Assembly: GCA_963716815.1 (NCBI GenBank)
Contig: CAVQUM010000004.1
Location: 70,333-134,332 of the forward strand
Length of the DNA: 64,000 nucleotides
Source of the DNA: an uncultured Chloroflexia bacterium
GTDB lineage: Bacteria > Chloroflexota > Limnocylindria > Limnocylindrales > CSP1-4
Reading direction: 5' to 3'
Positions 3,312 to 49,703 of this stretch are shown piece after piece (position 1 is the stretch's first letter; every line of letters begins with the position of its first letter). The translations under genes and the position numbers were made by a program. The notes beneath the pieces were generated by a model. The model searched no databases. It was not told the origin of the DNA and worked only from the letters and a program-made list of their open reading frames with translations.

Positions 3312-4289
3312 TCAGCCCATGGTCAGGGCCATCACCGCCTTCTGGGCGTGGAGCCGGTTCTCGGCCTCGTCGAAGGCCGCCGACTTGGGCCCGTCGATGA
3401 CCGCGTCGGCCACCTCAACGCCACGGTCGGCCGGCAACGGATGCATCCAGATGGCGTCGTCCGCCGTCATGGCCATGCGCCGCTCGTCGGAGATCCAGTC
3501 GGTGTACTGCCCCGCGATCTTGGCGCCTTCCTCGTCAGAGACACCCAGGGTGTGGGCACCCCACGACTTGGCATAGACGATGTCCGCGCCGTCGAAGCCG
3601 GCATCGAAGTCGGTCAGCTGCTCGAAGGCGCCTCCGGCCGCAGCCACGTTGGCCGCCGCCTCTTCCATGATCTGCGGCATCAGCTTGAACTCGGGCGGGT
3701 GGACCAGCTTGACGTCCATGCCGAAGCGGGTCGCGGCGAGCAGCAGTGACTGCGGCACCGAGATGGGCTTCTGATAGGACGACGCATAGGCCCAGCTGAT
3801 GGTGATCGACTGGCCCCGCAGGCGGCCCTTCTTCTCGATGATGGTCATCAGGTCCGCGAGGATCTGGAAGGGGTGGTACGTCTCGCACTGCATGTTGAGC
3901 ACGGGCACGCGCGAGGCCTCGGCCACGGCACGGATGTACTCGTTGCCCTCACCCGGGGTGACGTGACGGATGGCGATGCCATCGTTGTAGCGGCCCAGGA
4001 TCTCGCCGATCTCGGTGGCCGTGTCGCCGTGGGCGATCTGCGTGGTGCGGCTCTCCATGAACATGCCGTGCCCGCCGAGCTGGGCCATGCCCGCCTCGAA
4101 CGAAGCACGTGTGCGGGTGCTGCTGAAGAAGAAGAGCATGGCCAGCGTCTTGTCCAGCAGGTAGGCGTGGCGCTCACCGAGCGCGCGCTTGCGCTTGAGC
4201 TCGAAGGCCACGTCGAGCGCGGTCTCGATCTCCTCGTTGGTCCAGTCCGAGAGCGCGATGAGGTCGCGCCCCCGAAGTCCGGTCTGCAT
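3312..4289 (-). CDS. transcarbamylase of the N-acetyl/N-succinyl-ornithine (AOTCase/SOTCase)/YgeW-like subgroup, specificity unknown
   Basis: Intact 325-aa ORF. Carbamoyl-phosphate motifs are FFFSSTRTRASFE and YHPFQILAD. It has DIVYAKSWGA in place of the OTCase DxxxSMG motif, HPLPADRGVEV in place of HCLP, and the C-terminal DEAENRLHAQKAVMAL. Confidence 0.85.
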   Translation of the reverse strand: MQTGLRGRDLIALSDWTNEEIETALDVAFELKRKRALGERHAYLLDKTLAMLFFFSSTRTRASFEAGMAQLGGHGMFMESRTTQIAHGDTATEIGEILGRYNDGIAIRHVTPGEGNEYIRAVAEASRVPVLNMQCETYHPFQILADLMTIIEKKGRLRGQSITISWAYASSYQKPISVPQSLLLAATRFGMDVKLVHPPEFKLMPQIMEEAAANVAAAGGAFEQLTDFDAGFDGADIVYAKSWGAHTLGVSDEEGAKIAGQYTDWISDERRMAMTADDAIWMHPLPADRGVEVADAVIDGPKSAAFDEAENRLHAQKAVMALTMG

Positions 4290-4299
4290 CGATCGCCCC

Positions 4300-5256
4300 C
4301 TACTCGGCCTTGCCGAGGATGAGCGTCAGCAGCGCCATGCGCATGACCACGCCGTTGAAGGCCTCCACCCAGTAGCGGCCGAAGCGGGTCTCATCGACGT
4401 CCGCGGTGAGCTCGTCCATGCGCGGCAGGCTGTGCAGCACGAACGCGTCGCGCTTGGCCTTCTCGTGCAGCAGCTTGAGGTTGACGACGTACTCGGGCGG
4501 TGTGAGGCCCTTCTCGACGTCCTTCTCATCCACGCGGCCCTGGGTGTAGTCGGCCTGGACGACCGGCTCCATGTAGATGACATCGGCCTCGCCGATGACG
4601 TCACGGATGTCGCCGACCTCGCGGTAGTAGGTGGAGCGCTCGTCGAGCTCAGCCTTGAACTCGGGCAGCAGGCTCATCTCATCGGGGCCGATGATGATGG
4701 CCTCCATGTCGAAGCGTGACATCGCGTACAGGATCGAGTGCATCGTGCGCATGCGCATGTCGCCGACGAGGATGAGCTTGAGCCCGTCGAGGGTGCCCTT
4801 CTCCTTCCAGATGGTGTAGAGGTCCGTCAGCACCTGGGTGGGATGCTCGCCCCAGCCGTCGCCGCAGTTGATGACCGGGACGCTGGCCCACTTGGCGGCC
4901 TCGTGCGGCGCGCCCTGCTGGTAGTGCCGGATGGCGATGACATCGCCGTAGTACTCCAGCATGTGGAAGGTGTCCTTCAGTGACTCCATGTAGAAGTCGC
5001 CAGCGCGGGTCATCTTGGCGTCGCTGAAGCCGAGCACGTGACCGCCGAGGCGATGCATCGCAGCCTCGGTCGAGAGGCGCGTGCGGGTGGACGGCTGGTA
5101 GAACGCGGTCAGCAGCGTCTTGTCGGCGAGGAGGTCGGTGTTGCGGCGGTCACGCGCGATCGGCGCCAGGTCGTCGCAGACCTGGAAGATGCGCAGGTAC
5201 TCGTCGCGGGTCATGTCCTTGAGGGACAGGATGTCGCGGCCCTTGAAGCTTCTCAT
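4300..5256 (-). CDS. aspartate-carbamoyltransferase-fold (PyrB-like) paralog with altered second-substrate site
   Basis: Motifs YQPSTRTRLSTE, VIAIRH, GEHPTQ, VGDMRMRTMHS and HSLPR. I chose the MRSFKGRDILSL start (ATG 5256, AGGAGGAAGG upstream, 22 nt after the upstream stop) over the ORF-track start at 5319, which would overlap the upstream gene. Confidence 0.85.
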   Translation of the reverse strand: MRSFKGRDILSLKDMTRDEYLRIFQVCDDLAPIARDRRNTDLLADKTLLTAFYQPSTRTRLSTEAAMHRLGGHVLGFSDAKMTRAGDFYMESLKDTFHMLEYYGDVIAIRHYQQGAPHEAAKWASVPVINCGDGWGEHPTQVLTDLYTIWKEKGTLDGLKLILVGDMRMRTMHSILYAMSRFDMEAIIIGPDEMSLLPEFKAELDERSTYYREVGDIRDVIGEADVIYMEPVVQADYTQGRVDEKDVEKGLTPPEYVVNLKLLHEKAKRDAFVLHSLPRMDELTADVDETRFGRYWVEAFNGVVMRMALLTLILGKAE

Positions 5257-5278
5257 TTCGGGGGTGTCCTTCCTCCTG

Positions 5279-6643
5279 CTACTGGGGACTGGGTGTGTCG
5301 GCGTCTCTGCGGGCGCCACTGAAGATCACTGCCACGGTCTCGTCTGGGCGGACGACGCCGTCGCGGGTGAGCTCGATGAGGCCGGCGAGGCCGGCGGTTC
5401 CGGTGTGGTCGGCATCGATCCCGACCACGGGTCGTGCCAGGGCGTTGGCAGCTTCGAGCGTGGCCTCGTCGACCACGACCGAGCGACCGCCGGTGATGAG
5501 CATGGCACGCACGACGGCGAGCCAATCATAGGTCTCGTCATCGAGGATGCCATGAGCGACCGAGACGGGCTCGGTCTCCCAGGCCCACATGAAGTCCGAG
5601 CGATGCCGGGCCACGACCTCGAGGGCATGGTCCACGGCCTCGACCGGCACGGGCTCGCCGATGATGACGCCGAGCTGGCCGGCCACGCGCTCATGGGCGC
5701 GGGCCAGGGGATAGGCACCTTCGGTCTGCACGGTGTCGATGACCGGCATGCGGGCGATCTGGCCGAAGGCGAGGGCTTCCTCGAGGGCCTGGGCCGCTGA
5801 CGAGGCGAAGGCCCCGCCGCCGACGTGGATGACGAGGCGGTCGAGCGCGACGTCGTCGGGCAACTGGTCGATGAGCTCCCAGGCCAGCGTCTGGCCGCCC
5901 TCGATGGCCAGGCCGTTGAGGTTGCCCTGCACGGTGAAGGGCACCGCGCCATCGGCGATGGCGGCCGTCAGCCGATGCACCGTGGGGTCGCCGGCCTGGC
6001 CCGGCTTGCGCTCGCAGACCTCGATCTCTGCCCCCAGCGTTCGCAGCCGCTCGATCACGGCCGGCTCGGCCGACGGCGGCACGAACACCAGCAGGCGCCG
6101 GCGTGCAGCCCGAGCCACGACCGCGGCCGCGAGGGCAGCGTTGCCGCAGGAGGCGATGGCCAGCGGCGTCTTGGGGTCGATCGCGCCGGTCGACTCGGCC
6201 ACGCGCAGCGCCAGCATCACGCCCATGAGGTGGCGGGCCTTGTGCGAGCCCGAGACGTTGCCGGTCTCGTCCTTGACCCAGACCCCGCCCTCGGTCAGGC
6301 CGAGCTCGTCGTCGAGGGCCGGTACGCGCACCAGCGGCGTCGTGCGAAAGCCGCTGCCGTCGACCTCCGCGACCGCGTCGTCGAGCTCGCGCACGAGATC
6401 CACGTAGCGCGCGTCGGTCCAGCCGACCGCGCGCGCCGCATGGTAGCTGTGGAAGCGGCGCCGGTAGCGCACGAATGGGTCGTCGTCCGCGTCGATCTCG
6501 GCAGCCACAGCGGGGTCGAGCACGCGCCGCAGCACGTGGTCGATGTCGTCGCCGGGCTGCTGGGCGGGACAGGCCCAGGCGATGGCTGTCTCGGCCGGGA
6601 TCTCGGTCCCGCAGCCGGCGCAGATGAGGCGCGACACCGCCAT
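5279..6643 (-). CDS. fold-type-II PLP enzyme, threonine-synthase-like, with N-terminal CxxC element
   Basis: MAVSRLICAGCGTE...WACP followed by VWVKDETGNVSGSHKARH, a PALP K-x-E-x-x-N-x-x-GS-x-K-x-R pattern that includes the Schiff-base lysine. ATG at 6643 lies 2 nt after the upstream stop; the 516-aa track ORF is an upstream overextension. Confidence 0.8.
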   Translation of the reverse strand: MAVSRLICAGCGTEIPAETAIAWACPAQQPGDDIDHVLRRVLDPAVAAEIDADDDPFVRYRRRFHSYHAARAVGWTDARYVDLVRELDDAVAEVDGSGFRTTPLVRVPALDDELGLTEGGVWVKDETGNVSGSHKARHLMGVMLALRVAESTGAIDPKTPLAIASCGNAALAAAVVARAARRRLLVFVPPSAEPAVIERLRTLGAEIEVCERKPGQAGDPTVHRLTAAIADGAVPFTVQGNLNGLAIEGGQTLAWELIDQLPDDVALDRLVIHVGGGAFASSAAQALEEALAFGQIARMPVIDTVQTEGAYPLARAHERVAGQLGVIIGEPVPVEAVDHALEVVARHRSDFMWAWETEPVSVAHGILDDETYDWLAVVRAMLITGGRSVVVDEATLEAANALARPVVGIDADHTGTAGLAGLIELTRDGVVRPDETVAVIFSGARRDADTPSPQ

Positions 6644-6645
6644 GG

Positions 6646-8133
6646 TCAGGCGGTCACCGCGGCGTTGAACTCGTCGATCATGTCGTCCCACTCGGTCACG
6701 ATCGAGCGGGTCTCGACCCAGAAGTCCTGACTCTCGCGCGCGGTGAACTCCTCGAAGGTGACGCCCTGCTGCTCGACCCAGGTGTAGTAGCCCAGGTTGA
6801 ACATGCGCAGGCGGTCCGCGTGCGTGCATTCGAGCATGTGGGCGGTGTCCACGCCATCGAGATAGGCCGCGCGGACCTCTCCGGCAGCGGCTGCGTCGAA
6901 GGTGCCGCGGTGGTCACGAGCCACGATGCCGTCGATCTCGGAGGCGTACATACCCGCGCCATCGGTGGCCACGGTGGCGATGACGTCCTTGGGGCCGAGC
7001 CCCTGCTGCACCGCCACCTTGATCGCGGCCAGGACGTTGCAGATCGACGAGTAGCCGAAGGAGCAGAGCTGGTCGACCACCGCCTGCGGCACGCCCATGC
7101 GCTCGCGCAGGTGCTCATGGCCGACCTCGGTGTTGAAGAGCACCATCAGGTTGTCCGTGGCGCGGTCGCTGATGTCGACGATGAAGTCGGTGTTCATGGC
7201 GTTGTGGATGAGCGGCACGTGCTTGTCGCCGATGCCCTGGATGTTGTGTTCGCCGAAGCCGTTGTAGAGCAGCGTGGGGCACTCGAGCGCTTCGACCGCG
7301 GCGATGCGCGTGCCGTACTCCTCCTTGAGGTAGTCGCCCGCGGCGATGGCTCCAGCCGAACCGGTGGCCGAGGTGAAGACCGACAGGCGCAGCTCGTCGT
7401 CTTCCTCGACGAGGCGATCGAAGACGCGCGCGATCGCGGCACCGGTCAGGTAGAAGTGGCCGATGTGGTTCCCGAACTCGCTGAACTGGTTGAAGATGAC
7501 GGTGTCCGGATCCCGGTCAAGCTCGGCGCACTTGTCGTAGATCTCCTTCACGTTCGACTCGGTGCCGGGCGTGCGGATGATGTCGTCGGGCGAAGTCACC
7601 CACGAGGCCAGCCAGTCGAAGCGCTCCTGGCTCATGCCCTCGGGCAGCACCGCCACACCGTGGCTCTGCATGATGCGGCTGACAGCCACGCCGCCGCGGC
7701 AGTAGTTGCCGGTGGAGGGCCAGATAGCGCGCTGTGACTCCGGTTCGAACTGACCGGTCACGATGCGCGGCGCGAGGCAGCCGTAGGCGGCGATGAGCTT
7801 GTGCGAGTGGATCATGGGGAAGCGGTCGCCCAACAGCACCACGATGGGCGAGGGCACACCGGTCAGCTCCGGCGGCAGGACCACGTGGGCCGGGGTCGAC
7901 ACCGGCATCGGCTCGTCGAACTCGTTGTGCCAGTGGGCACGGAAGAGGTTGCGTGGATCGGCTGCGTCGGGGTCGGCCTCGGCCACGTTGCTCAGCAGGT
8001 CGAGCGGCATGGCGCAGGGGTCGGCCAGTTGGGCGAACGTGGGCATGACGATGCCGGCCTCGCGAAAACGCCGGACGGAGCTGGCGTAGACATCCTGGTC
8101 CACCACTTCACGTTCGAGTCCCAGGCGTCGCAT
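6646..8133 (-). CDS. fold-type-II PLP enzyme, long (495 aa) cysteine-synthase/TrpB-like family (OrtB-thiolase-like size class)
   Basis: Intact ORF with FPMIHSHKLIAAYG (candidate PLP lysine), a glycine-rich SATGSAGAIAAG loop and a ~100-aa N-terminal extension. It is the first gene of the 4-gene minus-strand operon. Confidence 0.75.
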   Translation of the reverse strand: MRRLGLEREVVDQDVYASSVRRFREAGIVMPTFAQLADPCAMPLDLLSNVAEADPDAADPRNLFRAHWHNEFDEPMPVSTPAHVVLPPELTGVPSPIVVLLGDRFPMIHSHKLIAAYGCLAPRIVTGQFEPESQRAIWPSTGNYCRGGVAVSRIMQSHGVAVLPEGMSQERFDWLASWVTSPDDIIRTPGTESNVKEIYDKCAELDRDPDTVIFNQFSEFGNHIGHFYLTGAAIARVFDRLVEEDDELRLSVFTSATGSAGAIAAGDYLKEEYGTRIAAVEALECPTLLYNGFGEHNIQGIGDKHVPLIHNAMNTDFIVDISDRATDNLMVLFNTEVGHEHLRERMGVPQAVVDQLCSFGYSSICNVLAAIKVAVQQGLGPKDVIATVATDGAGMYASEIDGIVARDHRGTFDAAAAGEVRAAYLDGVDTAHMLECTHADRLRMFNLGYYTWVEQQGVTFEEFTARESQDFWVETRSIVTEWDDMIDEFNAAVTA

Positions 8134-8257
8134 CGCATCCTCCGTCTGTCATCTTCGTCGGCCGTCGCCGAAGCAGGGCCAGTGCTGCTCATCGAGCGGC
8201 GGTCCGGCCGGCCGTGCCTGCGAGTGGGGCGGCATCGTTGCCGGCAGGTTCGCCTAG

Positions 8258-8277
8258 CCTAACGGTGTTCGTTAAGG
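8258..8277. promoter_or_regulatory. near-palindromic AT-rich site in divergent intergenic region
   Basis: CCTAACG-GTGTT-CGTTAAGG (core TAACG N5 CGTTA). It is the only AT-rich patch in the 199-bp gap between the operon start (8133) and the Mo-enzyme start (8333). Confidence 0.3.
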
Positions 8278-8332
8278 GTAGGGTGTCGCTAGGGCCACAT
8301 GGCCCCGCATCACGCACGAACGGCAGGGACTC

Positions 8333-10945
8333 GTGGACATCATCCTCAACGGCCAGCCTCGCTCGGTCGACTTCGCCCCCGGCACTTCGCTCCTCCAACT
8401 GCTGCGCAATGAGCTGGGGTTGCGCTCGATGAAGGACGGCTGTGCGCCCGAAGGCTCGTGTGGCGCCTGCACCGTCATCGTCGACAGCCGGCCCGTGGTC
8501 TCCTGCGCCCAGCCCGCGGAGCGTTTCGGGGGCAAGGAGGTCGAGACGCTCGAAGGGCTGCCCGAGGATTCGCGTGAGCTGTGGGCCGACGCCTTCAGTG
8601 CCACCGGCGCCTCGCAGTGTGGCTACTGCACGCCGGGCATCGTGATGAAGTCGGAGGCACTGCTGCGGCGCGAGGACGATCCCGGTCGCGAGGTCATCAC
8701 CAAGGCTCTTGCCGGCAATCTCTGCCGCTGCACCGGCTACCTGTCCATCATCGATGCGGTCGGACAGGTGGCCGCGGCACGGGCCGGTGGTCCCCGACCG
8801 ACCCCGCATCCCGGCGCCGCGGTCGGCGACCCTGCGCCCAAGTACCGCTCGCGTGAGCAGGTCCTGGGTATGCAGGAGTACGTGGCCGACCACGTCTTCC
8901 CCGGCATGCTCCATGGCGCGCTGCGTTTCAGCGATCACCCGCGGGCGGTGGTGTCCTCGATCGACACGTCCGCGGCGGAGGCGGCACCAGGCGTGGTCGC
9001 GGTCGTCACCGCCGCCGACGTGCCCGGGAAGCGCAACCAGGGGCTCATCAAGGACGACTGGAACCAGTTCATCGGCGTGGGCGAGACGACCCACTACATC
9101 GGTGACGTGCTCGCGGCGGTGGCGGCCGAGACGCGCGCCCAGGCCCGTGCCGCGGCCGAGCTCATCGAGGTCGAGTACGAGGTGCTGGAACCTGTGACCG
9201 ACCCCTTCGAGGCGCTGGCCGCGGGCGCACCCGCGGTGGGGCGCGACGGGAACCTGCTCTCCACCTCGGCCTACCGCATCGGCGATGTCGAAGCGGCCAT
9301 CGCAGCCTCCGCGCACGTGGTCTCCGATTCGTTCACCACCGCCGGCATCGAGCACGCCTATCTCGAGCCCGAGTCGTCGCTGGCAGTGCCCCAGACCGGC
9401 GATGGTCCGCGCCTGCACGTGCTCTCGCAGGGACAGGGTGCCTGGGAGGACCGACGCCAGATCGCCTCGCTGCTGGGTTGGCCCGAACAGGACGTGCTGG
9501 TCACGCAGGTGGCCACCGGCGGCGCCTTCGGCGGCAAGGAGGACCTCAACGTCCAGGGCCACGCGTCCCTGCTGGCGATCGCCACCGAGCGGCCGGTGCT
9601 GCTGGCGCTGTCACGCGCCAATTCGCTGCGCTTCTCCATCAAGCGCCATCGCTTCTGGATGGACTACACCGTGGCCTGTGACGCCGACGGGATGCTGACG
9701 GCGGTGAAGGCCCGCTTCGTGGGCGACAACGGCGGTTACGCCAGCGTCGGGGCCAAGGTCCTCGAGCGCGCGGCCGGCCACGCCTGCAGTGCCTACGAGG
9801 TGCCGGCCGTGGACGTCGAGGCGCGGGCGGTGTACACCAACAACCCGCCCTGCGGGGCCATGCGTGGCTTCGGTGCCAACCAGGCCAACTTCGGCATGGA
9901 GACGCTGCTCGACCGGTTGGCCGAGGCGGTCGGCATCGACGGCTGGGAGATCCGCTGGCGCAACGCGCTCGAGACCGGGAAGCGCTTCGGTACCGGTCAG
10001 AAACTGGGTCCGGGCGTGGGCCTGAAGAAGACGCTGCTGGCGGTCAAGGACCAGTACAAGGGCGCCAGGTACGCGGGCATCGCCTGCGGCGCCAAGAACA
10101 CCGGCATCGGCAATGGCATGAAGGAGTACGGCCGCGCCGTGGTGCGGCCCGAGGGCGACGGCCGCCTGACCGTCTTCCACTCGTGGACCGAGATGGGGCA
10201 GGGCACCCACACGGTCATGCGCCAGATCGCCAGCGACGAGCTGGACCTGCCGCCCGCATCGATCGAGGTCCGGGTCGACACCTCGTACGAGCTCGACACC
10301 GGCATCACCACCGCCTCGCGCGCGACGATGCTCGGCGGCCGCGCGGTGCTCAAGGCCTGCGAGGCCCTGCGCGCCGAGATGGTGGCACGGCGCTGCCGCC
10401 TCGACGACCTCGCGGGCGAGGAGTTCCCCGCGGAGATCGTCGTCGACTGGACCACCAAGCTGGGCGACGACGTGGCCGAGCCCATCACCCATTTCGCCTT
10501 CGGCTGGGCCACGCAGGTGTGCATCCTCGATGACGAGGGGCGCATCGAGAAGATCATCGCCGCGCACGACGTGGGCAAGGCGCTCGACCCGCTCATGCTC
10601 GAGGGCCAGGTCGTGGGCGGGGTCCACATGGGTCTGGGCCACACGCTCAGCGAGACGTTCGAGACCGAGGGTGGCCACCTCGTCACCGACACCCTGAAGT
10701 CGCTCAACATCATCCCCGCTTCGGGCATGCCGGAGGTGGAGACGATCCTTGTGGAGGAGCATCAACCCGAGGGACCCTACGGCGCCAAGGGCATGGGCGA
10801 GGCGGTGCTGGTACCCACGGCCGCGGCCGTGGCCGGCGCGCTCTATGCCTTCGACGGCGTGCGCCGGACGGAGTTGCCCATGCGCGACTCGCCTGCGGCC
10901 ATCGCCGCCGTGCCCAAGCTCAAGCGCCTGCTTGCCCCGCGTTGA
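8333..10945 (+). CDS. fused [2Fe-2S] + molybdopterin-binding oxidoreductase (aldehyde oxidoreductase / XdhD-like), no FAD domain
   Basis: The N-terminus carries GCAPEGSCGACTV, CGYCTPG and CRCTGY cluster motifs. These are followed by a/b-hammerhead and Moco domains (GGAFGGKED, AMRGFGANQ, PEGPYGAKGMGE). No CoxM/XdhB-type FAD subunit gene is nearby. Confidence 0.9.
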   Translation: MDIILNGQPRSVDFAPGTSLLQLLRNELGLRSMKDGCAPEGSCGACTVIVDSRPVVSCAQPAERFGGKEVETLEGLPEDSRELWADAFSATGASQCGYCTPGIVMKSEALLRREDDPGREVITKALAGNLCRCTGYLSIIDAVGQVAAARAGGPRPTPHPGAAVGDPAPKYRSREQVLGMQEYVADHVFPGMLHGALRFSDHPRAVVSSIDTSAAEAAPGVVAVVTAADVPGKRNQGLIKDDWNQFIGVGETTHYIGDVLAAVAAETRAQARAAAELIEVEYEVLEPVTDPFEALAAGAPAVGRDGNLLSTSAYRIGDVEAAIAASAHVVSDSFTTAGIEHAYLEPESSLAVPQTGDGPRLHVLSQGQGAWEDRRQIASLLGWPEQDVLVTQVATGGAFGGKEDLNVQGHASLLAIATERPVLLALSRANSLRFSIKRHRFWMDYTVACDADGMLTAVKARFVGDNGGYASVGAKVLERAAGHACSAYEVPAVDVEARAVYTNNPPCGAMRGFGANQANFGMETLLDRLAEAVGIDGWEIRWRNALETGKRFGTGQKLGPGVGLKKTLLAVKDQYKGARYAGIACGAKNTGIGNGMKEYGRAVVRPEGDGRLTVFHSWTEMGQGTHTVMRQIASDELDLPPASIEVRVDTSYELDTGITTASRATMLGGRAVLKACEALRAEMVARRCRLDDLAGEEFPAEIVVDWTTKLGDDVAEPITHFAFGWATQVCILDDEGRIEKIIAAHDVGKALDPLMLEGQVVGGVHMGLGHTLSETFETEGGHLVTDTLKSLNIIPASGMPEVETILVEEHQPEGPYGAKGMGEAVLVPTAAAVAGALYAFDGVRRTELPMRDSPAAIAAVPKLKRLLAPR

Positions 10946-10948: not shown

Positions 10949-11200
10949 TCAGCCCGCTGCCCGCTTGACGAGCGCCTCGATCCGCGTCTGCTCGGCCTCG
11001 GTCAGCTCGGTCAGGGCGAAGGATGTGGGCCACATGCCGCCCTCGTCGAGGTGCGCTGCGTCGTTGAAGCCGAGCGTCGCGTACCTGGCCTCGAACTTGG
11101 CCGCACCCTGGAAGAAGCAGATCACCTTGCCGTCCCGGGCATGCGCGGGCATGCCGTTCCAGGTGCGCGGCCAAAGGTCGGGCGCACGCCATCGTGCCAC
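10949..11200 (-). CDS. DUF1801/YdhG-like small protein (N-terminus uncertain)
   Basis: The C-terminal 75 aa, [74 protein letters not shown], match my recollection of this family. The upstream part of the 147-aa ORF is Arg-rich junk, so I placed the start at GTG 11200. Confidence 0.45.
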
Positions 11201-11405
11201 CGATGCTGCTCGCTGCCTTCTCGCGGTACGGGCGCTACCGTGGACGGCGCTGTGATCGACGCAGAGGAGGCCTGACCTGGCGTTCACAAGAGGATCACCC
11301 TTCGGCCGGGCCGGGCGCCGAGATCGACGCCGACCGACCGACCCGAACCGCCCGTCCGGGACCGACTCGAGCGAGACCGACGGCGGGTTCACGCGCCTGA
11401 CCGGC

Positions 11406-17950: not shown

Positions 17951-19564
17951 TCATGCCGGCTGCTCGCGTCTGAGCGTGGCTACCTGATCGGCCCCGAGCG
18001 TCTGCCACTCGCCGACCGCGCCGTCGGGCCAGGTCACGCGAACCTCGGCCTTGTCGTGCTGGCCGAGCCCGAAGTGGATCGGCCCGAGCGAACCACCGGC
18101 GTGACCGCCGCCGACGGTGACCTCGCGGATCGTGCGCCCGTCCCCGGCCTCGACCTCGATCCAGGCACCGATGGCATCGGCGTTGGGGCCATCCTGCGCG
18201 AGCTTCACGTCCAGCCAGTGGCCCATGGCCTTAGGCTTCCGCGCGGTCCCACGTCCGACGTTGCGTCGGACGTCGACGTTCTCGTAGCGGTTGACCTCGA
18301 CGAGGTCGAGCAGACCGTCTCGGTTCAGGTCCACCAGCGCTGCGCCGCGGGTGCGGACCGAGCTGAGGATGCCGGCCTTCTTCGCCGCTCGCTCGAACGT
18401 GCCGTCGGTGCGCCGCAGGAGCAGCTCGTTGGGATCCTCGAGTGCACTGCCCGCCGCTTCATCGACGTTGCCCTTGGAGACGTAGAGGTCGAGCCGGCCG
18501 TCGTTGTTGACGTCGTCGAACTCCGGGTGCCATGAGGTCGAGGGGTCGATGGGCCGACCGATCGAGGGCGTCGTCACCGAGATCCCATGGTGGGGGGCGA
18601 CGTCCACGAAGACCGGCGCGGAAGGATCCGACTCGAGCGTCTCCAGGCGGTTCGCCCCGATGCTCGTGAGGTAGTACTCGAGGAACCCGTCGCCGGTCAC
18701 GTCCTCGGCCGCGATACCCATGCCGAAGATGCGCACCGGCTTCCAGCCGTCCTCGGACGCGTACAGGCGAGGCGGTTCGTCGGCCACGACCTGCCACAGT
18801 TGATCGCCGCCCTCGTTGTAGTAGTAGTGGCGGTCGTTGGCCACGCGCAGGTCACGACGACCCGAGCGGTCCCAGTCGCTGAAGAGCATGGACAGGGCAC
18901 ATCGTCCGGGCTCCAGCGTCGTTGCCGGCGCGAACCCGCGGCCTCCGCTTGCCGGGCGATAGACGTACCCGGGCGTACAGTGGGCGAGGTGCTGCTCGTC
19001 GAAGTGGTCGACGTAGTTGCCGAACGCCAGCGTCGGCCAGTCATGCCCCTCCTCCCATGTCGCGCTGAAGGCCGTGGTCCAGTCGTCGCGGCCGTCGAAC
19101 CCCCAAGCCTCGTTGGCTCGCTCGAAGGCGCAATCGCCGAGCCCCCGCAGGAGCACGTTCTCGCCGTAGCGCAGGACCGCCAGATCGGTGTTGCCATCCG
19201 AGTCGATGTCGAGCGGGTAGGCACCGGTGACCGAAGCCAGATCGGTCACCTCGCTCTCGACGCGTTCGAAGCGCAGGCGCTTGCCCGTCTGGCTCCGATT
19301 GCGGAAGAGCGCGGCGGCCCCCTCGCCGCCGGCGAAGTAGAGCTCCGGCCGCTCATCGCCGTTGCAGTCGAGGACCGCCACCCCGCCTCCGACGTAGAAG
19401 TCGAAGCCGCCATCGTAGGTGTGGTCGATCCCAGCTGCCGCAGCCTCCTCGACGAAGGTGGGCACCCTTGGCCCCTTCGTCGGCTCGGCGGCGTGGGTCA
19501 CGGCTGGAGCGGCGAGGACGAGACAGAGGGCGACCGCGAGGGTGGCCCGGAGCAGGAGTCGCAC
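17951..19564 (-). CDS. secreted CRTAC1-family protein (FG-GAP/VCBS repeats + ASPIC/UnbV domain)
   Basis: Signal peptide, repeats DIDSDGNTDLAV, DWDRSGRRDL, DVNNDGRLDLYV and DLNRDGLLDLV, and C-terminal GHWLDVKLAQDGPNADAIGAWIEVEAGDGRTIREVTVGGGHAG...VRVTWPDG. Confidence 0.85.
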   Translation of the reverse strand: MRLLLRATLAVALCLVLAAPAVTHAAEPTKGPRVPTFVEEAAAAGIDHTYDGGFDFYVGGGVAVLDCNGDERPELYFAGGEGAAALFRNRSQTGKRLRFERVESEVTDLASVTGAYPLDIDSDGNTDLAVLRYGENVLLRGLGDCAFERANEAWGFDGRDDWTTAFSATWEEGHDWPTLAFGNYVDHFDEQHLAHCTPGYVYRPASGGRGFAPATTLEPGRCALSMLFSDWDRSGRRDLRVANDRHYYYNEGGDQLWQVVADEPPRLYASEDGWKPVRIFGMGIAAEDVTGDGFLEYYLTSIGANRLETLESDPSAPVFVDVAPHHGISVTTPSIGRPIDPSTSWHPEFDDVNNDGRLDLYVSKGNVDEAAGSALEDPNELLLRRTDGTFERAAKKAGILSSVRTRGAALVDLNRDGLLDLVEVNRYENVDVRRNVGRGTARKPKAMGHWLDVKLAQDGPNADAIGAWIEVEAGDGRTIREVTVGGGHAGGSLGPIHFGLGQHDKAEVRVTWPDGAVGEWQTLGADQVATLRREQPA

Positions 19565-19635
19565 GATGGCGCCAGTCTAGGCGCTCCACCAGCCCTCGCG
19601 CCACGAGGTAGCATCGTCGGGAGGAGGATGACGTC

Positions 19636-21492
19636 ATGCGCACGCGCGTTTGGGTGATGCTGGGGCTGGTCCTGGCCTTGTCGCTGCCGCTCGCTGCGCC
19701 CGTGGCGGCCGCGAGTGACGCCGACCGGTGCGTCCGCAGCGTGGATCGGGCGAAGTCGGTCGCGCGCTACTGGGACGAGGCGCTGCTCGAGGCCATCCGG
19801 CGCGACTTCCCCGCACCGACGGTGCACGCGCGCAACCTCTACCACCTCTCAGTCGTCATGTGGGACGCATGGGCTGCGTTCGACCCCGATGCCGACGGTG
19901 TCTTGGTGACCGAGAAGTACGAGCACGACCATCCCGCCGCGGCCCGCGACCGCGCCATCAGCTACGGCGCCTATCGACTGCTCAGCCACCGTTATCGCGA
20001 CGCCGTGGGCGGAGCCGAAAGCCTCAAGGCCTTCGATGAGTTGATGGCTGCGCTGTGCCTGCCCACCGACCGCACCGGGACCAGGGGAGGCTCGGCCGCG
20101 GCGCTCGGCAACCGCATCGCGGCGCGCGTCATCAGCGCAGGGCTCCGGGATGGCTCCCGCGAGCGGCAAGGCTATGTCTCGGCCGACTACGTGCCGGTCA
20201 ACGAGCCGATGGTGGTCAAGGCGCCGGGCACGTTCCTGACCGACCCCAACCGCTGGCAGCCGCTGGCCCTCGAGGTGGCGATCTCGCAGAACGACATCCT
20301 GTTGCCCAGCGGGCCGCAGGAGTTCGTGGGACCGCACTGGGGTCACGTCGACTCGTTCGCCCTGCCCGACGCGGGTCCCGACGGGGTGCCCATCGATCCG
20401 GGGCCACCGCCTCGCCTGGGCGATCCCCTGACCGACGACACGTTCAAGGAGAAGGCGGTCGAGGTGGTGCGCTACAGCAGCCTGCTCGACCCGCGTGATG
20501 GGGTCACCACGGACATCTCGCCCCGGGCCCTGGGCAACAGCACGCTCGGGACCAACGATGGGCACGGCTACGACATCAACCCCGCGACCGGAGAGCCGTA
20601 CGCGCCCAACGTCGTACCGCGGGCGGACTTCGGTCGAGTCCTCGCCGAGTTCTGGGCCGACGGCCCGTCCTCGGAGACGCCGCCCGGCCACTGGAACTCG
20701 CTGGCCAACACCGTCGTCGACCACCCCGCCTTCGAGCGTCGCATCGGTGGCTCCGGCGAAGAGCTGGGGCCGCTCGAGTGGGACGTGAAGATGTACCTCG
20801 CGCTCAATGGTGCGGTCCACGACGCGGCGGTCGCAGCCTGGGGCGCCAAGAGCCACTACGACTACGTCCGGCCCATCTCCATGATCCGCTGGATGGGTGG
20901 CCTGGGCCAGTCGACCGATCCCTCACTGCCCGCGTATCACCCCGATGGGCTGCCGCTGGTCCCGGGTCAGGTCGAGCTCATCACGCCCGCTTCAGCGGCG
21001 CCCGGCGAACGGCACGAGCACCTTGCCGACCACGTCGATGAGATCGCCGTCTTCGCCTGGAGCGGCAACCCCAGCGACACCGCGAGCGAGTTCGGCGGCG
21101 TGGACTGGATCCGTGCGGTCGAGTGGGTGCCGTACCAGATGCCGACGTTCGTGACGCCGGCATTCGCGGGCTACGTGAGCGGCCACTCCACCTTCAGCCG
21201 CGCGGCCGCGGAGGTGCTCGCCGCCATCACCGGCACGCCCTACTTCCCCGGTGGCCTCGGCTCGTGGACGGTGCCCGCCGGCTCGCTCCAGTTCGAGTCG
21301 GGCCCGAGCCAGGACGTCGAACTGCAGTGGGCCACCTACTACGACGCGGCCGACCAGGCCGGCCTCAGCCGCCTCTATGGCGGCATCCACGTCGAGGCCG
21401 ACGACCTGCAGGGCCGGGTCATGGGTGCGCAGTGTGGCCGCGACGCCTGGACCACCGCCCAGCGCTACTGGCAGGGGACGGCCCGAGGCTGA
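19636..21492 (+). CDS. secreted vanadium-dependent haloperoxidase / PAP2-superfamily protein
   Basis: Signal peptide plus the three active-site motifs in order: KSHYDYVRP, YVSGHSTFS, SRLYGGIHVEADD. Confidence 0.8.
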   Translation: MRTRVWVMLGLVLALSLPLAAPVAAASDADRCVRSVDRAKSVARYWDEALLEAIRRDFPAPTVHARNLYHLSVVMWDAWAAFDPDADGVLVTEKYEHDHPAAARDRAISYGAYRLLSHRYRDAVGGAESLKAFDELMAALCLPTDRTGTRGGSAAALGNRIAARVISAGLRDGSRERQGYVSADYVPVNEPMVVKAPGTFLTDPNRWQPLALEVAISQNDILLPSGPQEFVGPHWGHVDSFALPDAGPDGVPIDPGPPPRLGDPLTDDTFKEKAVEVVRYSSLLDPRDGVTTDISPRALGNSTLGTNDGHGYDINPATGEPYAPNVVPRADFGRVLAEFWADGPSSETPPGHWNSLANTVVDHPAFERRIGGSGEELGPLEWDVKMYLALNGAVHDAAVAAWGAKSHYDYVRPISMIRWMGGLGQSTDPSLPAYHPDGLPLVPGQVELITPASAAPGERHEHLADHVDEIAVFAWSGNPSDTASEFGGVDWIRAVEWVPYQMPTFVTPAFAGYVSGHSTFSRAAAEVLAAITGTPYFPGGLGSWTVPAGSLQFESGPSQDVELQWATYYDAADQAGLSRLYGGIHVEADDLQGRVMGAQCGRDAWTTAQRYWQGTARG

Positions 21493-21516
21493 CCAGCGGG
21501 CTCGGTCGCGGATGCG

Positions 21517-23859
21517 CTACTGGCGAGCCAAGGCCATGCGGATCTCCGCCTCGTGGTCGACGACGCTCTCGCCGGAGACGTCGTAGACGGCGCGAAGGAC
21601 GGTGCCGCTGAAAGCGAACGGCGGCCGGTACTCGGGCGTGACCGGCGCTCCGGCGTCCAGGCCCACCGAGACTCCGCCGGCCAGTCCGACGGTGATGGGC
21701 ATCGTCACCGGCAACTCGCCCGAGCCCACCGGCTGGCCATCGACGAAGAGGGTGATGGTGCCGGGTGTGCCCTTGCCCTTGAGCGGCTCGGCCGGCCCGG
21801 TCGGCGCGAACTCGAAGCTGAGGATGTGCTTGCCGCCCGGGACGTCGGTGTCCGACACGATGTGGAAGTGCTGGTCGGCCACGTAGTTGTAGGTGTAGCG
21901 CAGCTTCCCGTCCTGCACGAACAGCGAGAACCCGCCGTCGACACCGCCCTGGCTGAGCAGCACACCTTCGGCGCCCTCGTCGGGGACGATCACGCCGACG
22001 TGTGCGCTGTGCGGCCGGTTGAGCAGTTTGGGTGCGGCGTTGGGCGGCACCTCCTGGGTTCCGGGGTAGTAGGTATAGCGCTCACGATCGGGTGCGAGCT
22101 GCGGCCGCTCGTCGGCGAAGCGCTGCTGCCCGCGGCCGTCCACCGGGAGCACGTTGTACTTGCCGGCCTCGGCATACCAGGTGGCGATCATCTCGAGCAG
22201 CCGCGCGGGGTTCTCGGCCGCCACGTCGTGGCCCTCGGTCCAGTCCTCGGCCACGTGGTAGAGCTCCCACCCGCTCGCGTCGAGTTCGGTCAGCTTCTCG
22301 GCCGGGATGGGCGTGCCGAAGGGCTGGCCCTCCGCGAAGGAAGCGCCCGGCCAGGGGCAGACCGCTTTCCAGCCGTCGTGGTAGATGGAGCGGTGGCCCA
22401 GCATCTCGAAGTACTGCGTGGTCCGATGTGACGGTGCTTCGGGGTCGGTGATCGAGCCGGCCAGGCTCAGGCCCTCGATGGGCGACTGCTGGACGCCGCG
22501 GATGAAGGTCGGCGGCTCGATGTCGAGCAGTTCCAGCACCGTCGGCACCATGTCGATGGCGTGGCCGTACTGGTCGCGGATCTCACCCCGGGCTTCCACG
22601 CCGGCCGGCCAGTGGATGATGAAGGGGTCGCTGATGCCGCCGCGATAGGTCTCTCGCTTCCAGCGACGGAAGGGCGTGTTGCCGGCCCAGGTCCAGCCCC
22701 ACGGGTAGTGGTTGAAGTACTTGGGCCCGCCGATGTCGTCGATGGCCGCGAGGTTCTGTTCCAGGTCGTCTTCGACGAAGTTGAAGAACTTGTTCTCGTT
22801 GATGGATCCGGTGGGCCCGCCTTCCGAGCTGGCGCCGTTGTCGCTGATGGCCATGATCAGCGTGTTGTCCAGCTCCCCGAGCTCCTCGAGGAAGTCAAGC
22901 AGCCGGCCGATGTGATGGTCGGTGTGCTCGAGGAAGCCGGCGAAGACCTCCATCATGCGCGCGTACAGGCGCCGCTCCTCGGCCGACAGGCTGTCCCAGT
23001 GGGGCACGTCCGGATCGTGCCTTGAGAGCTCGGCATCGGCCGGGATCACGCCCAGCTCCTTCTGGCGGGCGAAGACCTGCTCGCGGTAGGCCTCCCAGCC
23101 ATCGTCGAAGACGCCCTTGTACTTGTCCGTCCATTCCGCCGCCACGTGGTGCGGCGCGTGCATGGCACCGGTGGCGAAGTAGAGGAAGAAGGGCTTGTTG
23201 GGTGCGACCTGCTTGGAGTCCGCCAGGAAGCTGATGGCGCGGTCGACGAGGTCCTCGGTGAGGTGGTAGCCCTCCTCCGGGGTCTTCGGCGGCTCGACGC
23301 GGTGGTTGTCGTACGTCAGCTCGGGGTAGTACTGGTGCGTGTCACCGCCGAGGAAGCCGTAGTAGCGCTCGAAGCCTCGCCCCAGCGGCCAGCGGTCGTA
23401 GGGCCCGGCCGCCGAGATCTGATCGGCCGGCGTCAGGTGCCACTTCCCTACCGCGTAGGTGTTGTAGCCCTCGCGCTGCAGGATCTCACTGAGGAAACCG
23501 TTCTCGAAGGGGATGTAGCCGTCGTAGCCGGGGAAGCCGGTGCTGATCTCGGTGATGCCGGCCATGTGGTTGGAGTGGTGGTTGCGACCGGTGAGGATGC
23601 ACGTGCGGGTGGGCGAGCACAGCGCGGTCGTGTGCATGTTGCTGTAGCGCAGGCCGCCGGCCGCGAGGCGGTCGAGATTGGGCGTGGCGATGGGACTGCC
23701 GTAGCAGCCGAGCTGCCCGAAGCCGGTGTCGTCGAGCACGATGAACAACACGTTCGGCGCGCCGTCGCCTGGCTCGACGCGGTTCCGGCCAGGCCTGCTC
23801 GGAGGCGTCGAAGGTACGACCGATGACTCCCGGGAACGTCGTGCCGGGCTTGTACTCCT
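21517..23859 (-). pseudogene. arylsulfatase (formylglycine type), one frameshift near 23781
   Basis: APNVLFIVLDDTGFGQLGCYGS and CSPTRTCILTGR lie in the 788-aa ORF. The family-typical N-terminus MGLKEYKPGTTFPGVIGRTFDASEQAWPEP (ATG 23859, GGAGGAG RBS) is one frame off. Confidence 0.85.
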
Positions 23860-23994
23860 TGAGACCCATCGTTGCTCCTCCAAGGCTCAGCAGATGAAGA
23901 ACCGGGCTGGTTGCCCAGCTACGGCGTTCGGGCGCTTGCGGCACGGTAACAGCGTCGTCCGGCACCCGCACCGCAGGCACGCTAGCCTCGGGTC

Positions 23995-25976: not shown

Positions 25977-26143
25977 GGGCAGTGTTCCTCTCGTCGTTCC
26001 TAGCAGTTGCAGAACGTGACGTATCGTAGGCCACATCGTGCTTGGGCGTCGTGTGATGGAGGTGCGCGCGTCGTACCATCGCTCGGCGCGAGGCTGACGA
26101 GGGGCGTCGGGGTCGCCACCATCGAGGAAGGAGCAGGCCGGGC

Positions 26144-36820: not shown

Positions 36821-41495
<4,675 letters not shown>

Positions 41496-47305: not shown

Positions 47306-47381
47306 GGGGGAGTAGCTCAACGGTTAGAGCAGTCGGCTTATATCCGACCGGTTCCAGGTTCGAGTCCTGGCTCCCCTACCA
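47306..47381 (+). tRNA. tRNA-Ile(UAU): tRNA-Ile, anticodon UAU, genomically encoded CCA
   Basis: Hand-folded cloverleaf: acceptor GGGGGAG/CTCCCCT (G1-U72), D arm GCTC-AACGGTTA-GAGC, anticodon arm GTCGG-CTTATAT-CCGAC (U33, T34 A35 T36, A37), variable loop CGGTT, T arm CCAGG-TTCGAGT-CCTGG, A73, CCA. U12-A23, C29-G41 and A73 match E. coli tRNA-Ile identity elements. Confidence 0.85.
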
Positions 47382-48596: not shown

Positions 48597-49703
48597 TCAG
48601 TTGGTGCTCGCACTTGGTGTGTTGGAGTCGTCTGCATGGATGACCTGGGCGGCCTGCTGCTGCAGGGCCAGCCGCCGCTCGGCTCGCTGCTGGAGCTGGT
48701 CGACGATCAGGGCCAGCACGATGACGCTGCCGGTGATGATCAGCTTCGCGAACGACGAGATGCCCATCAGCGTCAGGCCGTTGTTGAGCGTGCCGATGAC
48801 GAGGGCGCCGATGATGGTGCCGAGGATGGTTCCGCGGCCGCCGGCCAGCGAGGTGCCGCCGAGCACGACCGCGGCGATGGCGTAGAGCTCGTAGTAGAGG
48901 CCGGTGGCGGGGTGCGCCGCGACCAGCTGGCTGGCGATGATGAGGCCGACCGTGGCAGCGCAGAAGCCACTGATCATGTACACGATCATCTTGGTGCGGT
49001 TGACGCGCACGCCCGAGAGCTCCGCCGAGCGCTCGTTGCCACCTACCGCGTAGACGGCCCGCCCGAAGGGCGTCCGCGTGGTCACGAACCAGGCCACCAC
49101 CGCGAAGAGCACGAGGATGACGATGGCCCAGGGGACGACCCCGAAGGCCTCGCCGGTGCCCAGCTCGCGGAAACCGGTGTTGCCCAGCTCCTCCTTGCCA
49201 ACGAGGTTGGGATAGGTCCCACCATTGTTGATGATTCCGGCCAGGCCACGGGCGACCATGAGCATGCCCAGCGTGGCGATGAACGGGGCCACGTTGAAGC
49301 GGGTGATGATGAAGCCGCTGATGGCGCCCATGAAGGTGCCCGCCGCCAACGAGATGACCAGCACCATCCAGGTGTGCGGGAAGATGACGTAGCCGCCGAC
49401 CGTCAGGCCTTCGTGGATGAGCAGGCCCGCGACGATGCCGGTGAAACCGACGAGCGAGCCGACCGAGAGGTCGATGCCGCCGGTCAGGATGACAAAGGTC
49501 ATACCGACGGCGAGGATGCCGTTGAGGGCCGTCTGCTTGATGAGGATCTCGATGTTGGCGCCCGTGAGGAAGGTGCTCTCCACCCAGGCGAAGAACAGCA
49601 CCAGCACGATGAGCGCGATGAAGGCTCGTCCGCGGAGCAGGAACTGGGCGACCTCGGTCCGGGTCATGCCGCGCTTCTGGTCGGCCTGCGCATTCGCCGT
49701 CAC
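48597..49703 (-). CDS. sugar ABC permease (RbsC-like)
   Basis: GTGA overlap with the ATPase stop. FVILTGGIDLSVGS, VLGGTSLAGGRGTILGTIIGALVIG. Confidence 0.9.
   Translation of the reverse strand: MTANAQADQKRGMTRTEVAQFLLRGRAFIALIVLVLFFAWVESTFLTGANIEILIKQTALNGILAVGMTFVILTGGIDLSVGSLVGFTGIVAGLLIHEGLTVGGYVIFPHTWMVLVISLAAGTFMGAISGFIITRFNVAPFIATLGMLMVARGLAGIINNGGTYPNLVGKEELGNTGFRELGTGEAFGVVPWAIVILVLFAVVAWFVTTRTPFGRAVYAVGGNERSAELSGVRVNRTKMIVYMISGFCAATVGLIIASQLVAAHPATGLYYELYAIAAVVLGGTSLAGGRGTILGTIIGALVIGTLNNGLTLMGISSFAKLIITGSVIVLALIVDQLQQRAERRLALQQQAAQVIHADDSNTPSASTN

Follow-up and report, generated by a model that had tools for sequence, protein, structure and literature searches.

What task brings two transcarbamylase paralogs, two pyridoxal phosphate (PLP) enzymes of fold type II and a molybdenum hydroxylase together in one compact block? 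The question is raised by positions 3312-10945 of a 64,000-nucleotide stretch of contig CAVQUM010000004.1, from an uncultured Chloroflexia bacterium (hereafter the window; G+C about 69%). Four intact genes on the minus strand, with intergenic gaps of 10, 22 and 2 nt, span 3312-8133 and face a gene on the plus strand at 8333-10945, which encodes a fused 2Fe-2S/molybdenum cofactor (Moco) hydroxylase, the Mo enzyme (Table 1). The initial annotation, made from the sequence alone, had described this packing and its 199-bp divergent spacer as well as the domain types of the five proteins, and both descriptions agree with our open reading frame (ORF) calls and Pfam searches, including the lack of an FAD domain in the Mo protein. 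Our analysis suggests that the block is the conserved core of a soil Chloroflexota (Limnocylindria-like) variant of reductive urate/2,8-dioxopurine degradation, a reading to which we give a probability of about 0.62. This figure blends two judgements: that the block belongs to a reductive purine/urate catabolic system is likely, and the specific substrate assignments stand at or a little below even odds. On this reading, the two unusual carbamoyltransferases and the widespread PLP pair would take over from four enzymes of the gut bacteria.

Gene neighbourhoods in relatives and the reductive urate pathway

The reductive urate (2,8-dioxopurine) pathway was solved in 2025, in gut bacteria only (Li et al., PMC12507026; Liu et al., bioRxiv 10.1101/2025.04.24.650524), so that the ygeW/xdhD neighbourhood can no longer be called poorly understood, as it had been in the initial annotation. 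XdhD or XdhAC converts urate to 2,8-dioxopurine, YgfK or UacX reduces the ring, SsnA opens it and HyuA yields 2,3-diureidopropionate. One ureido group is then removed by YgeW or UacY and the other by YgeY, and YgeX converts 2,3-diaminopropionate to pyruvate; E. coli YgeW acts on diureidopropionate by phosphorolysis and gives ATP together with YqeA. The E. coli cluster comprises xdhD-ygfM, ygfK, ssnA, hyuA, ygeW, ygeY, ygeX and yqeA, and that of C. sporogenes and C. difficile xdhAC, ygfK/uacX, ssnA, hyuA, ygeW/uacY, ygeY and ygeX (PMC12507026; bioRxiv 10.1101/2025.04.24.650524).

Relatives of the block were collected by seeding on the 495-aa PLP protein, which gave 80 genome loci, and their neighbours were typed by tblastn, ORF clustering and hidden Markov models (HMMs). 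A locus was counted as well-flanked if the seed gene had at least about 9 kb of sequence to either side (43 loci, 16 of them Chloroflexota). In Chloroflexota relatives of about 65% identity, the five genes stand together with those of SsnA, carbamate kinase and a reductase of the dearomatising kind, which are hallmarks of the published pathway. The Mo gene and both transcarbamylases are present in all 16 well-flanked Chloroflexota loci, SsnA in 12, a UacX-like or YgfK-like reductase also in 12 (7 and 5, respectively), and carbamate kinase directly after the gene of the ornithine transcarbamylase (OTCase)-like protein, hereafter OTC-like, in 10. With NF005540, the SsnA of the relatives reaches 438 bits where the cut-off is 444, and its identity to E. 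coli SsnA is 40%; their carbamate kinase scores 364 bits against TIGR00746, above the cut-off, and is 48.6% identical to YqeA, and their YgfK-like protein is 35% identical to YgfK. The likeness to the ygeW-ygfK/xdhD purine neighbourhoods, noted in the initial annotation, is borne out by the company of SsnA, reductases and carbamate kinase, which places the block with the ygeW/ygfK/ssnA/xdhD neighbourhoods, and the five-gene arrangement, whose recurrence had been in question, is found in each of the 16 loci.

Three non-homologous reductases share one position beside SsnA in related clusters: a YgfK-like, a UacX-like and a luciferase-like type (Table 1), the last of which is presumably F420-dependent. 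Li et al. reported that SsnA clusters with a luciferase-family reductase in Chloroflexota and Actinomycetota (PMC12507026); for Chloroflexota they gave the luciferase type only, whereas YgfK-like and UacX-like reductases occur in our relatives too. SsnA and a reductase are also found in L081 and L082. On the 2.5-Mb contig of L082, the genes are co-directional in the order PLP-PLP-Mo-SsnA-luciferase-like-ATC-like-OTC-like-carbamate kinase (ATC-like, the protein resembling aspartate transcarbamylase, ATCase), which looks like a single operon, and they diverge from a conventional FAD-containing xanthine dehydrogenase (XDH).

A different set of partners was seen in L031, L040 and L055 (two Alphaproteobacteria and one Anaeromyxobacter), which have the Mo gene, SsnA and the PLP pair and no transcarbamylases. 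Between them, they carry an M20 (YgeY-like) peptidase and an Amidohydro_3 protein, with a HyuA ortholog (40% identical) in L040 and L055. HyuA orthologs were otherwise found only in L035, and M20 peptidases only outside Chloroflexota. Neither YgeY nor YgeX was detected in the 16 well-flanked Chloroflexota loci, and no YgeX homolog in any of 83 loci. Two candidate replacements for HyuA, a 318-aa protein without Pfam match that occurs only in L023, L025 and L058 and a second amidohydrolase in L011 and L012, were rejected as not conserved across the set. The latter gene (about 8410-9978 in L011/L012) lies between the Mo and CysK-like genes; its product shares about 30% identity with SsnA and about 28% with E. 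coli guanine deaminase, and may act as a guanine deaminase or in ring opening.

Compared with the E. coli and Clostridium clusters, the block has in common an FAD-less FeS+Moco hydroxylase, to which the relatives add SsnA, a YgfK/UacX-type reductase and carbamate kinase. Carbamoyltransferases that act on carbamoyl groups and a fold-type-II PLP enzyme at the end are likewise shared, these activities being proposed here from the genes. The known clusters have either a single carbamoyltransferase, YgeW, or the hydrolase UacY, together with the M20 hydrolase YgeY, whereas the block has a pseudo-ATCase and a short OTC/YgeW-like enzyme; YgeX has its place taken by a CysK-like and a ThrC-like protein; HyuA is present in the known clusters and was not found in the Chloroflexota loci; and the known clusters include SsnA and a reductase, whereas the window is without SsnA, reductase and carbamate kinase. 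The published hosts are gut anaerobes and ours are soil Chloroflexota. The second transcarbamylase and the PLP pair are therefore foreign to the known pattern, as the initial annotation had supposed. In the published literature, we found no description of a variant with two transcarbamylases and the PLP pair beyond the pieces given in the 2025, 2013 and 2015 papers cited here. Pathways of this type are known, and some of the pieces had appeared in earlier work; what is new and uncharacterised is their combination, the PLP pair and the step left without a hydantoinase.

Two transcarbamylases with replaced motifs

Both transcarbamylases match Pfam OTCace_N and OTCace, and their motifs were read by the scheme of Shi et al. 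(2015, PMC4581275) and Barba et al. (2013, PMC4016543). Among solved structures, the ATC-like protein matches the P. abyssi ATCase best (240 bits). The carbamoyl-phosphate motifs (STRT and HPTQ) are retained in it, as is the equivalent of R167. The protein reads FYQPSTRTR where ATCases have FxExSTR (Q for E, so that E50 is lost), GDFYMESL in the 80s loop where they have KKGE(S/T)L (K84 lost), YMEPVVQADY in the 240s loop where they have Y(V/M)TR(I/V)QKER (RxQxER lost, with R229 and Q231), and HSLPR in place of HPLP (ATCase HP[LG]P). All these substitutions are invariant across 23 orthologs. RxQxER is present in all known ATCases, where R229 and Q231 bind the beta-carboxylate of aspartate (PMC4581275). 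The model scores are mixed, with a marginal pass of TIGR00670 (241.9 vs a cut-off of 236.95) and a failure of the ATCase model NF002032 (221.3 vs 263).

The features by which Barba et al. recognise pseudo-ATCases were all found: STRT and HPTQ are kept, RxQ is lost, HxLP is altered, the P. abyssi ATCase is nearest, and the context is non-pyrimidine, with carbamate kinase and purine genes in the relatives. Judged by its motifs, the ATC-like protein is a pseudo-ATCase and not a housekeeping PyrB. The pseudo-ATCase Rxyl_2847 of Rubrobacter xylanophilus, a ureidoglycine carbamoyltransferase encoded beside carbamate kinase, phosphorolyses allantoate (diureidoacetate), and the pseudo-ATCase gene of Nocardioides sp. 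JS614 adjoins a ygeW homolog, xdhABC and hyuA (PMC4016543). The window protein resembles the known pseudo-ATCases in having the P. abyssi ATCase as its closest genuine relative, in its altered HxLP motif (HSLP, as in subgroups 2 and 3) and in its purine-catabolic context with carbamate kinase, the kinase being found here in relatives. It differs in the 240s loop, where EPVVQ fits none of the three published pseudo-ATCase patterns (AIA/AIS/SIA, GX[SC], VXP). Compared by published motifs, subgroup 1 with Rxyl_2847 needs HPLA and AIA/AIS/SIA, whereas the window protein has HSLP and EPVVQ, and the substrate proposed below, diureidopropionate, is one carbon longer than allantoate. Subgroup 1 also stands in an allantoinase/uricase context, and neither of these enzymes was seen in the annotated loci. 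Wherever a source gives the family a name, that name is aspartate carbamoyltransferase.

The OTC-like protein scores under every curated NCBIfam cut-off (OTC models, 255.8 vs 306 and 251.8 vs 280.85; N-acetylornithine transcarbamylase (AOTCase) model NF003384, 254.6 vs 288; YgeW model NF005538, 178.6 vs 453) and represents an uncurated OTCase/AOTCase/YgeW-like subfamily. Its motifs, invariant in 21 orthologs, are FFFSSTRTR (no K53), HP(F/H)Q, YAKSWGA instead of DxxxSMG, and HPLP instead of HCLP; a Pro-containing loop, SWAYASSYQKPISVP, is located where the proline-rich loop falls. It is 35% identical to E. coli YgeW and shorter (325 vs about 396 aa), a length from which it should lack the extra terminal helices and extended 240s loop of YgeW. 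Set beside YgeW and the knotted AOTCase and N-succinylornithine transcarbamylase (SOTCase) (Shi et al., 2015, PMC4581275), it reads HPLP rather than HCLP or H[AVC]LP, and it adjoins carbamate kinase only in relatives, whereas YgeW does so itself. The X. campestris AOTCase shares the YAKSWGA segment of the 240s loop and is longer than the OTC-like protein by 9 residues in the 80s loop and by 6 in the 120s loop. AOTCase stands in an arginine-cluster context, whereas no arg genes were found around the OTC-like gene in the parts of the window examined.

By the same reading of motifs, the OTC-like protein is not a housekeeping ArgF. The initial annotation had held that neither transcarbamylase is ArgF or PyrB, and the replacement of the defining motifs, invariant in the 23 ATC-like and 21 OTC-like orthologs, upholds this; a housekeeping identity was rejected on these motif tests. 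Its further statement that arg and pyr partners are absent agrees with our annotation, which is not exhaustive: in the parts of the window examined, no such partner and no third transcarbamylase turned up. No partners for cysteine or threonine biosynthesis were found either. The signatures of the VioL-type diaminopropionate transcarbamylases (DPTCases), (T/S)RWQTTG and HDLP, are in neither protein, and DPTCase/VioL-type biosynthetic carbamoylation was rejected for lack of them. We also rejected reductive catabolism of orotate or pyrimidines (a dihydroorotate dehydrogenase (DHODH)-like reductase, an amidohydrolase and a reversed ATCase), as the beta-carboxylate ligands are lost and the amidohydrolase is of the SsnA type.

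The PLP pair, the Mo enzyme and the divergent region

Both PLP proteins match Pfam PALP. The CysK-like protein does so at 31.7 bits, under the cut-off of 35, and reaches 58.5 bits with CysK models against a cut-off of 344. It is 495 aa long, compared with about 300-320 for CysK and CysM, and has unique helical extensions at the N-terminus (about 1-80) and C-terminus (about 400-495). Invariant are H111-K112, S140-T-G-N-Y144 and G258-S-A-G261, which correspond to the PLP lysine, the Asn loop and the Gly loop. The best PDB matches of its AlphaFold 2 (AF2) model (predicted local distance difference test, pLDDT, 89.1) are the cores of CysK and cystathionine beta-synthase (CBS), at 20-26% identity. 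The family is large, with at least 8000 database candidates at E <= 1e-5, and identities to the window protein are 63-91% among the 120 matches listed; for each of the two PLP families, more than 7,800 candidates pass the E-value cut-off.

The ThrC-like protein gives 123.5 bits with PALP, and its best curated model, threonine synthase, 78.9 bits against a cut-off of 303. K135 (in GSHKAR) is conserved, as are C8, C11, C25 and H36 of an N-terminal Cys/His zinc-ribbon-like motif, which confirms the CxxC N-terminus noticed earlier. The earlier label "ThrC-like" is not specific: in Foldseek, the AF2 model (pLDDT 87.8) ties threonine synthase, serine/aspartate racemase and threonine deaminase (16-22% identity). 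Identification of the PLP enzymes from structure models was thus given up, since only generic fold-type-II cores were matched although the models are confident. No characterised member of the CysK-like family was found, and the structure searches gave no closer characterised homolog of either protein. An SbnA model matches both weakly.

In every one of the 43 well-flanked loci, the CysK-like gene is directly followed by the ThrC-like gene, and this holds in Chloroflexota, Actinomycetota, Proteobacteria, Myxococcota and Acidobacteriota. The two genes often overlap by 4 nt, and such close or overlapping genes are consistent with translational coupling. With YgeX (2,3-diaminopropionate ammonia-lyase), the pair shares the fold type and the proposed position at the end of the pathway, and it is found wherever YgeX is missing; it differs in consisting of two proteins where YgeX is one, and no BLAST similarity is detectable (NF006058, 18.6 bits vs a cut-off of 276).

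The surroundings of the pair vary. In L083 (7112-12704), a LivK-type amino-acid ATP-binding cassette (ABC) transporter is followed by PLP-PLP-ATC-like, an 800-nt gap and carbamate kinase, and no Mo or SsnA gene lies within 10 kb. In L024, L030, L042 and L014, adenine deaminase, a class I/II aminotransferase and a 793-aa transketolase-like protein are encoded directly upstream, and a cytosine/purine permease or a Bmp-type ABC transporter downstream. In L043 and other Ilumatobacteraceae/Acidimicrobiia, the pair lies in a conserved neighbourhood of housekeeping genes, near RNase PH (rph), Ham1/RdgB, a glutamate racemase-like gene (murI), ClpP, ComM, DprA and XerC, and no purine-catabolic genes were found near the pair in these loci.

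The Mo enzyme has the Pfam domains Fer2, Fer2_2, Ald_Xan_dh_C, MoCoBD_1 and MoCoBD_2. With 891.7 bits, it passes the cut-off of 830.45 set for NCBIfam TIGR03311 ("selenium-dependent xanthine dehydrogenase"), a family that we infer to be of the XdhAC/2,8-dioxopurine dehydrogenase (DOPDH) type. In relatives, its gene adjoins that of SsnA. The initial annotation had likened the protein to E. coli XdhD or Desulfovibrio aldehyde oxidoreductase; by its HMM match it is of the TIGR03311 type instead, and its identity to XdhD, given below, is low. The XdhAC of C. sporogenes is a 2,8-dioxopurine dehydrogenase, which reduces urate and makes no use of NAD(P)H (Liu et al., 2025, bioRxiv 10.1101/2025.04.24.650524), and it has the same FAD-less FeS+Moco architecture as the window protein. 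Of the selenium-cofactor marker YqeB, homologs (38% identical) turned up in L030 and L042 alone; in the window, neither YqeB nor YqeC was detected by tblastn with the E. coli proteins.

In the divergent region, alignment of the window with its seven closest loci (L001-L006 and L068) revealed a conserved stretch of about 60 nt at 8253-8312. A perfect palindrome, GGGCCAcaTGGCCC, lies within it at 8292-8305, just upstream of the Mo start, and occurs once in the window (0.02 copies expected); the extended motif around it is found only in these seven loci. The conserved stretch and its palindrome may act as an operator or form the 5' leader of the Mo gene. A riboswitch or other known RNA was rejected, as there was no Rfam match, and promoter and terminator scans of the region were uninformative.

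Proposed route, alternatives and surroundings of the block

From the gene identities, motif losses and synteny shown above, we infer the following substrates and order of steps. The FAD-less Mo enzyme would interconvert urate and 2,8-dioxopurine reversibly. In relatives, the adjacent UacX-like, YgfK-like or luciferase-like reductase would dearomatise the ring and SsnA would open it, as in the published pathway. Both ureido groups of 2,3-diureidopropionate would then leave by phosphorolysis, without hydrolysis by YgeY. The pseudo-ATCase may cleave the alpha (2-) ureido group, because its substrate would be an analogue of N-carbamoyl-aspartate with an uncharged ureido group at the place of the beta-carboxylate; such a neutral group fits the loss of R229, Q231 and K84 and the retained R167. 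The OTC/YgeW-like enzyme may act on albizziin, which resembles a shortened citrulline, and remove its 3-ureido group. The two carbamoyl phosphates would yield ATP through the carbamate kinase that follows in relatives, and the PLP pair would replace YgeX, converting 2,3-diaminopropionate or ureido-alanine to pyruvate and ammonia, possibly as a racemase plus an eliminase or as a heteromer. We count it in favour of this replacement that the hydrolase-type loci L031, L040 and L055 keep the PLP pair and have no YgeX. As L083 and 21 of the 43 well-flanked loci have the pair without purine genes, it appears self-contained, and probably has an amino-acid-level function that was recruited by the urate pathway.

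Several observations weigh against this reading. With E. coli XdhD and XdhA, the Mo enzyme shares no more than 25.6% and 28.9% identity, respectively, and sequence does not reveal its regiospecificity; the activities of all proteins of the block are predicted ones. No HyuA-type hydantoinase lies within 10 kb in the 16 well-flanked Chloroflexota loci, which leaves one published step without an assigned enzyme there, and two PLP enzymes are more than the single step of YgeX calls for. Nearly half of the well-flanked loci (21 of 43, most of them from Acidimicrobiia) have the PLP pair with neither a Mo nor an SsnA gene in its vicinity. The window itself contains no SsnA, no YgfK-, UacX- or luciferase-type reductase, no carbamate kinase and no HyuA: tblastn with these proteins (all three reductases), M20 and Amidohydro_3 returned only a 28% DHODH-like match at 40854-41393, and a separate tblastn, whose queries were the proteins of the E. 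coli cluster with YqeB, YqeC and MocA among them, only the Mo and OTC-like genes of the block. The place after the Mo gene is taken, in the window lineage (with L001-L005 and L068), by genes of an ABC exporter and an EamA transporter. At 85% identity, L006 still has YgfK-like and SsnA genes after its Mo gene. In the organism of the window, SsnA, the reductase and carbamate kinase may be encoded elsewhere. A bolder version of the urate reading, which we consider quite improbable, would make the string PLP-PLP-Mo-SsnA-reductase-transcarbamylase-transcarbamylase-carbamate kinase, conserved in Chloroflexota and Actinomycetota, a complete, chemically distinct and hydantoinase-free route. A transcarbamylase would strip the exocyclic ureido group from the cyclic product of SsnA (e.g. 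5-ureido-dihydrouracil to 5-amino-dihydrouracil), one PLP enzyme would open the ring by alpha,beta-elimination, the PLP pair would be a new heteromeric purine-linked family, and both carbamoyl groups would be kept as ATP.

Among the alternatives, a self-contained "lower" module for an imported ureido or diamino amino acid (albizziin, diureidopropionate or another carbamoyl amino acid), with no tie to urate, is unlikely, although the most probable of them. The transcarbamylases would release carbamoyl phosphate, the PLP pair would deaminate the product, and the Mo enzyme would have a separate substrate in the window. Such a module can stand alone, because L083 joins a transporter to PLP-PLP-ATC-like-carbamate kinase with neither Mo nor SsnA; the window is likewise without SsnA and reductase, and the PLP pair is found alone in many Actinomycetota. 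However, the Mo gene stays by the four genes in 16 of 16 well-flanked Chloroflexota loci, 12 of which also keep SsnA and a reductase, and in the window the Mo gene and the operon share the conserved divergent control region. Both ideas may hold at once, since the module could serve as the lower part of urate breakdown.

Synthesis, which the initial annotation had named beside catabolism, is much less probable, and catabolism is favoured. In a biosynthetic cluster for a ureido or carbamoylated amino acid (beta-ureidoalanine, or one derived from diaminopropionate), a CysK/SbnA-like beta-replacement would be followed by carbamoylation as by VioB/VioL or the zwittermicin enzymes. CysK/SbnA-type enzymes do make precursors of 2,3-diaminopropionate, and the SbnA model weakly matches both PLP proteins; DPTCases carbamoylate diaminopropionate (PMC4581275), and an ABC exporter and EamA transporter adjoin the block in the window lineage. 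Yet (T/S)RWQTTG and HDLP are absent, no nonribosomal peptide synthetase, polyketide synthase or tailoring genes were seen nearby, and the conserved partners are catabolic (carbamate kinase, SsnA, reductases, conventional XDH, purine/nucleoside transporters, adenine deaminase). The family is also abundant and conserved across phyla, unlike a specialised-metabolite cluster. Hardly credible is the view that divergent but genuine ArgF/PyrB and cysteine/threonine synthases, with ordinary biosynthetic roles, lie beside the Mo enzyme by chance. The ATC-like protein does pass TIGR00670 (241.9 vs 236.95), and public annotations read aspartate carbamoyltransferase, cysteine synthase and threonine synthase. 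Against this, the ATCase motifs (RxQxER, FxExSTR, K84, HPLP) and OTCase motifs (DxxxSMG, K53, HCLP) are all replaced, invariantly; the PLP proteins reach 58 and 79 bits where the cut-offs are 344 and 303; and carbamate kinase and SsnA, rather than arg, pyr, cys or thr partners, are the conserved neighbours.

As a variant of reductive urate breakdown, the block would add Chloroflexota and Actinomycetota, which are abundant in soil, to the hosts of the pathway, and its relatives display three interchangeable reductase types. A commentary (PMC12990295) lists as open points the ureido group that the carbamoyltransferase attacks, the stereochemistry of the intermediates and the electron donor of the FAD-less Mo enzyme. 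One transcarbamylase of ATCase ancestry and one of OTCase/YgeW ancestry would provide a natural experiment on which enzyme cleaves the 2-ureido group and which the 3-ureido group, and the variant predicts more ATP, with two carbamoyl phosphates per urate. It would also give a first functional context to the families of the 495-aa "cysteine synthase" and its "threonine synthase" partner, and to the pseudo-ATCase family annotated as aspartate carbamoyltransferase.

Table 1. Features of the block (window coordinates) and reductase types found beside SsnA in related loci
Feature	Position or loci	Strand	Length
OTC-like carbamoyltransferase	3312-4289	-	325 aa
ATC-like (putative pseudo-ATCase)	4300-5256	-	318 aa
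ThrC-like PLP enzyme	5279-6643	-	454 aa
CysK-like PLP enzyme	6646-8133	-	495 aa
Divergent control region (spacer)	8134-8332		199 bp
Fused 2Fe-2S/Moco hydroxylase, FAD-less	8333-10945	+	870 aa
YgfK-like reductase	L006, L011, L012, L015, L019, L022		~1125 aa
UacX-like reductase (DHO_dh + 2x[4Fe-4S])	L007-L010, L018, L023, L025, L028, L029		~400 aa
Luciferase-like reductase	L045, L054, L065, L066, L081, L082		~335 aa

All five genes of the block are full length. The ATG at 5256 as start of the ATC-like gene is backed by orthologs of 317-318 aa that cover 100% of the query, and the length of the ThrC-like protein by an identical database protein (P0241). The closest relatives of the block are in metagenome-assembled genomes (MAGs) of uncultured Chloroflexia/Limnocylindria, at 85-91% protein identity. 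The initial annotation had stressed that the block is free of the indels that mark its neighbours. The five intact genes and a frameshifted neighbour, pyruvate:ferredoxin oxidoreductase (PFOR), agree with this, although the argument is a weak one: by a rough estimate, 7.6 kb without indels is not unusual at the indel density of the neighbours. The nearest relatives are MFD-labelled MAGs, which we take to be from the long-read Microflora Danica set, and this would explain the indels in the window.

The clear frameshift outside the block is at 36821-39824 (+), where PFOR is split over the overlapping frames 36821-38407 (POR_N and PFOR_II) and 37695-39824 (POR, EKR and Fer4). This enzyme would link pyruvate, the proposed end product, to reduced ferredoxin, a possible electron donor for the FAD-less Mo enzyme. 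At 49700-52930 (-), a single stop-to-stop ORF of 1076 aa combines a SorC-type Sugar-bind domain, DUF2291 and an ABC ATPase, normally the products of separate genes, whose frames were probably merged by indels.

On the 3' side of the Mo gene, the ABC exporter and the EamA transporter are followed by genes of a sugar-type ABC transporter. Between the Mo stop codon and the exporter, an ORF of 147 aa (10949-11392, -) with coding-like G+C at third codon positions (GC3) and no Pfam hit occupies the position where relatives have SsnA. Unrelated to the block, 17951-23886 encodes an FG-GAP/ASPIC repeat protein, a vanadium-chloroperoxidase-like protein (VCPO_2nd + DUF6851) and a 789-aa sulfatase. A GH36 alpha-galactosidase is encoded at 26057-28372, and a tRNA at 47306-47378.

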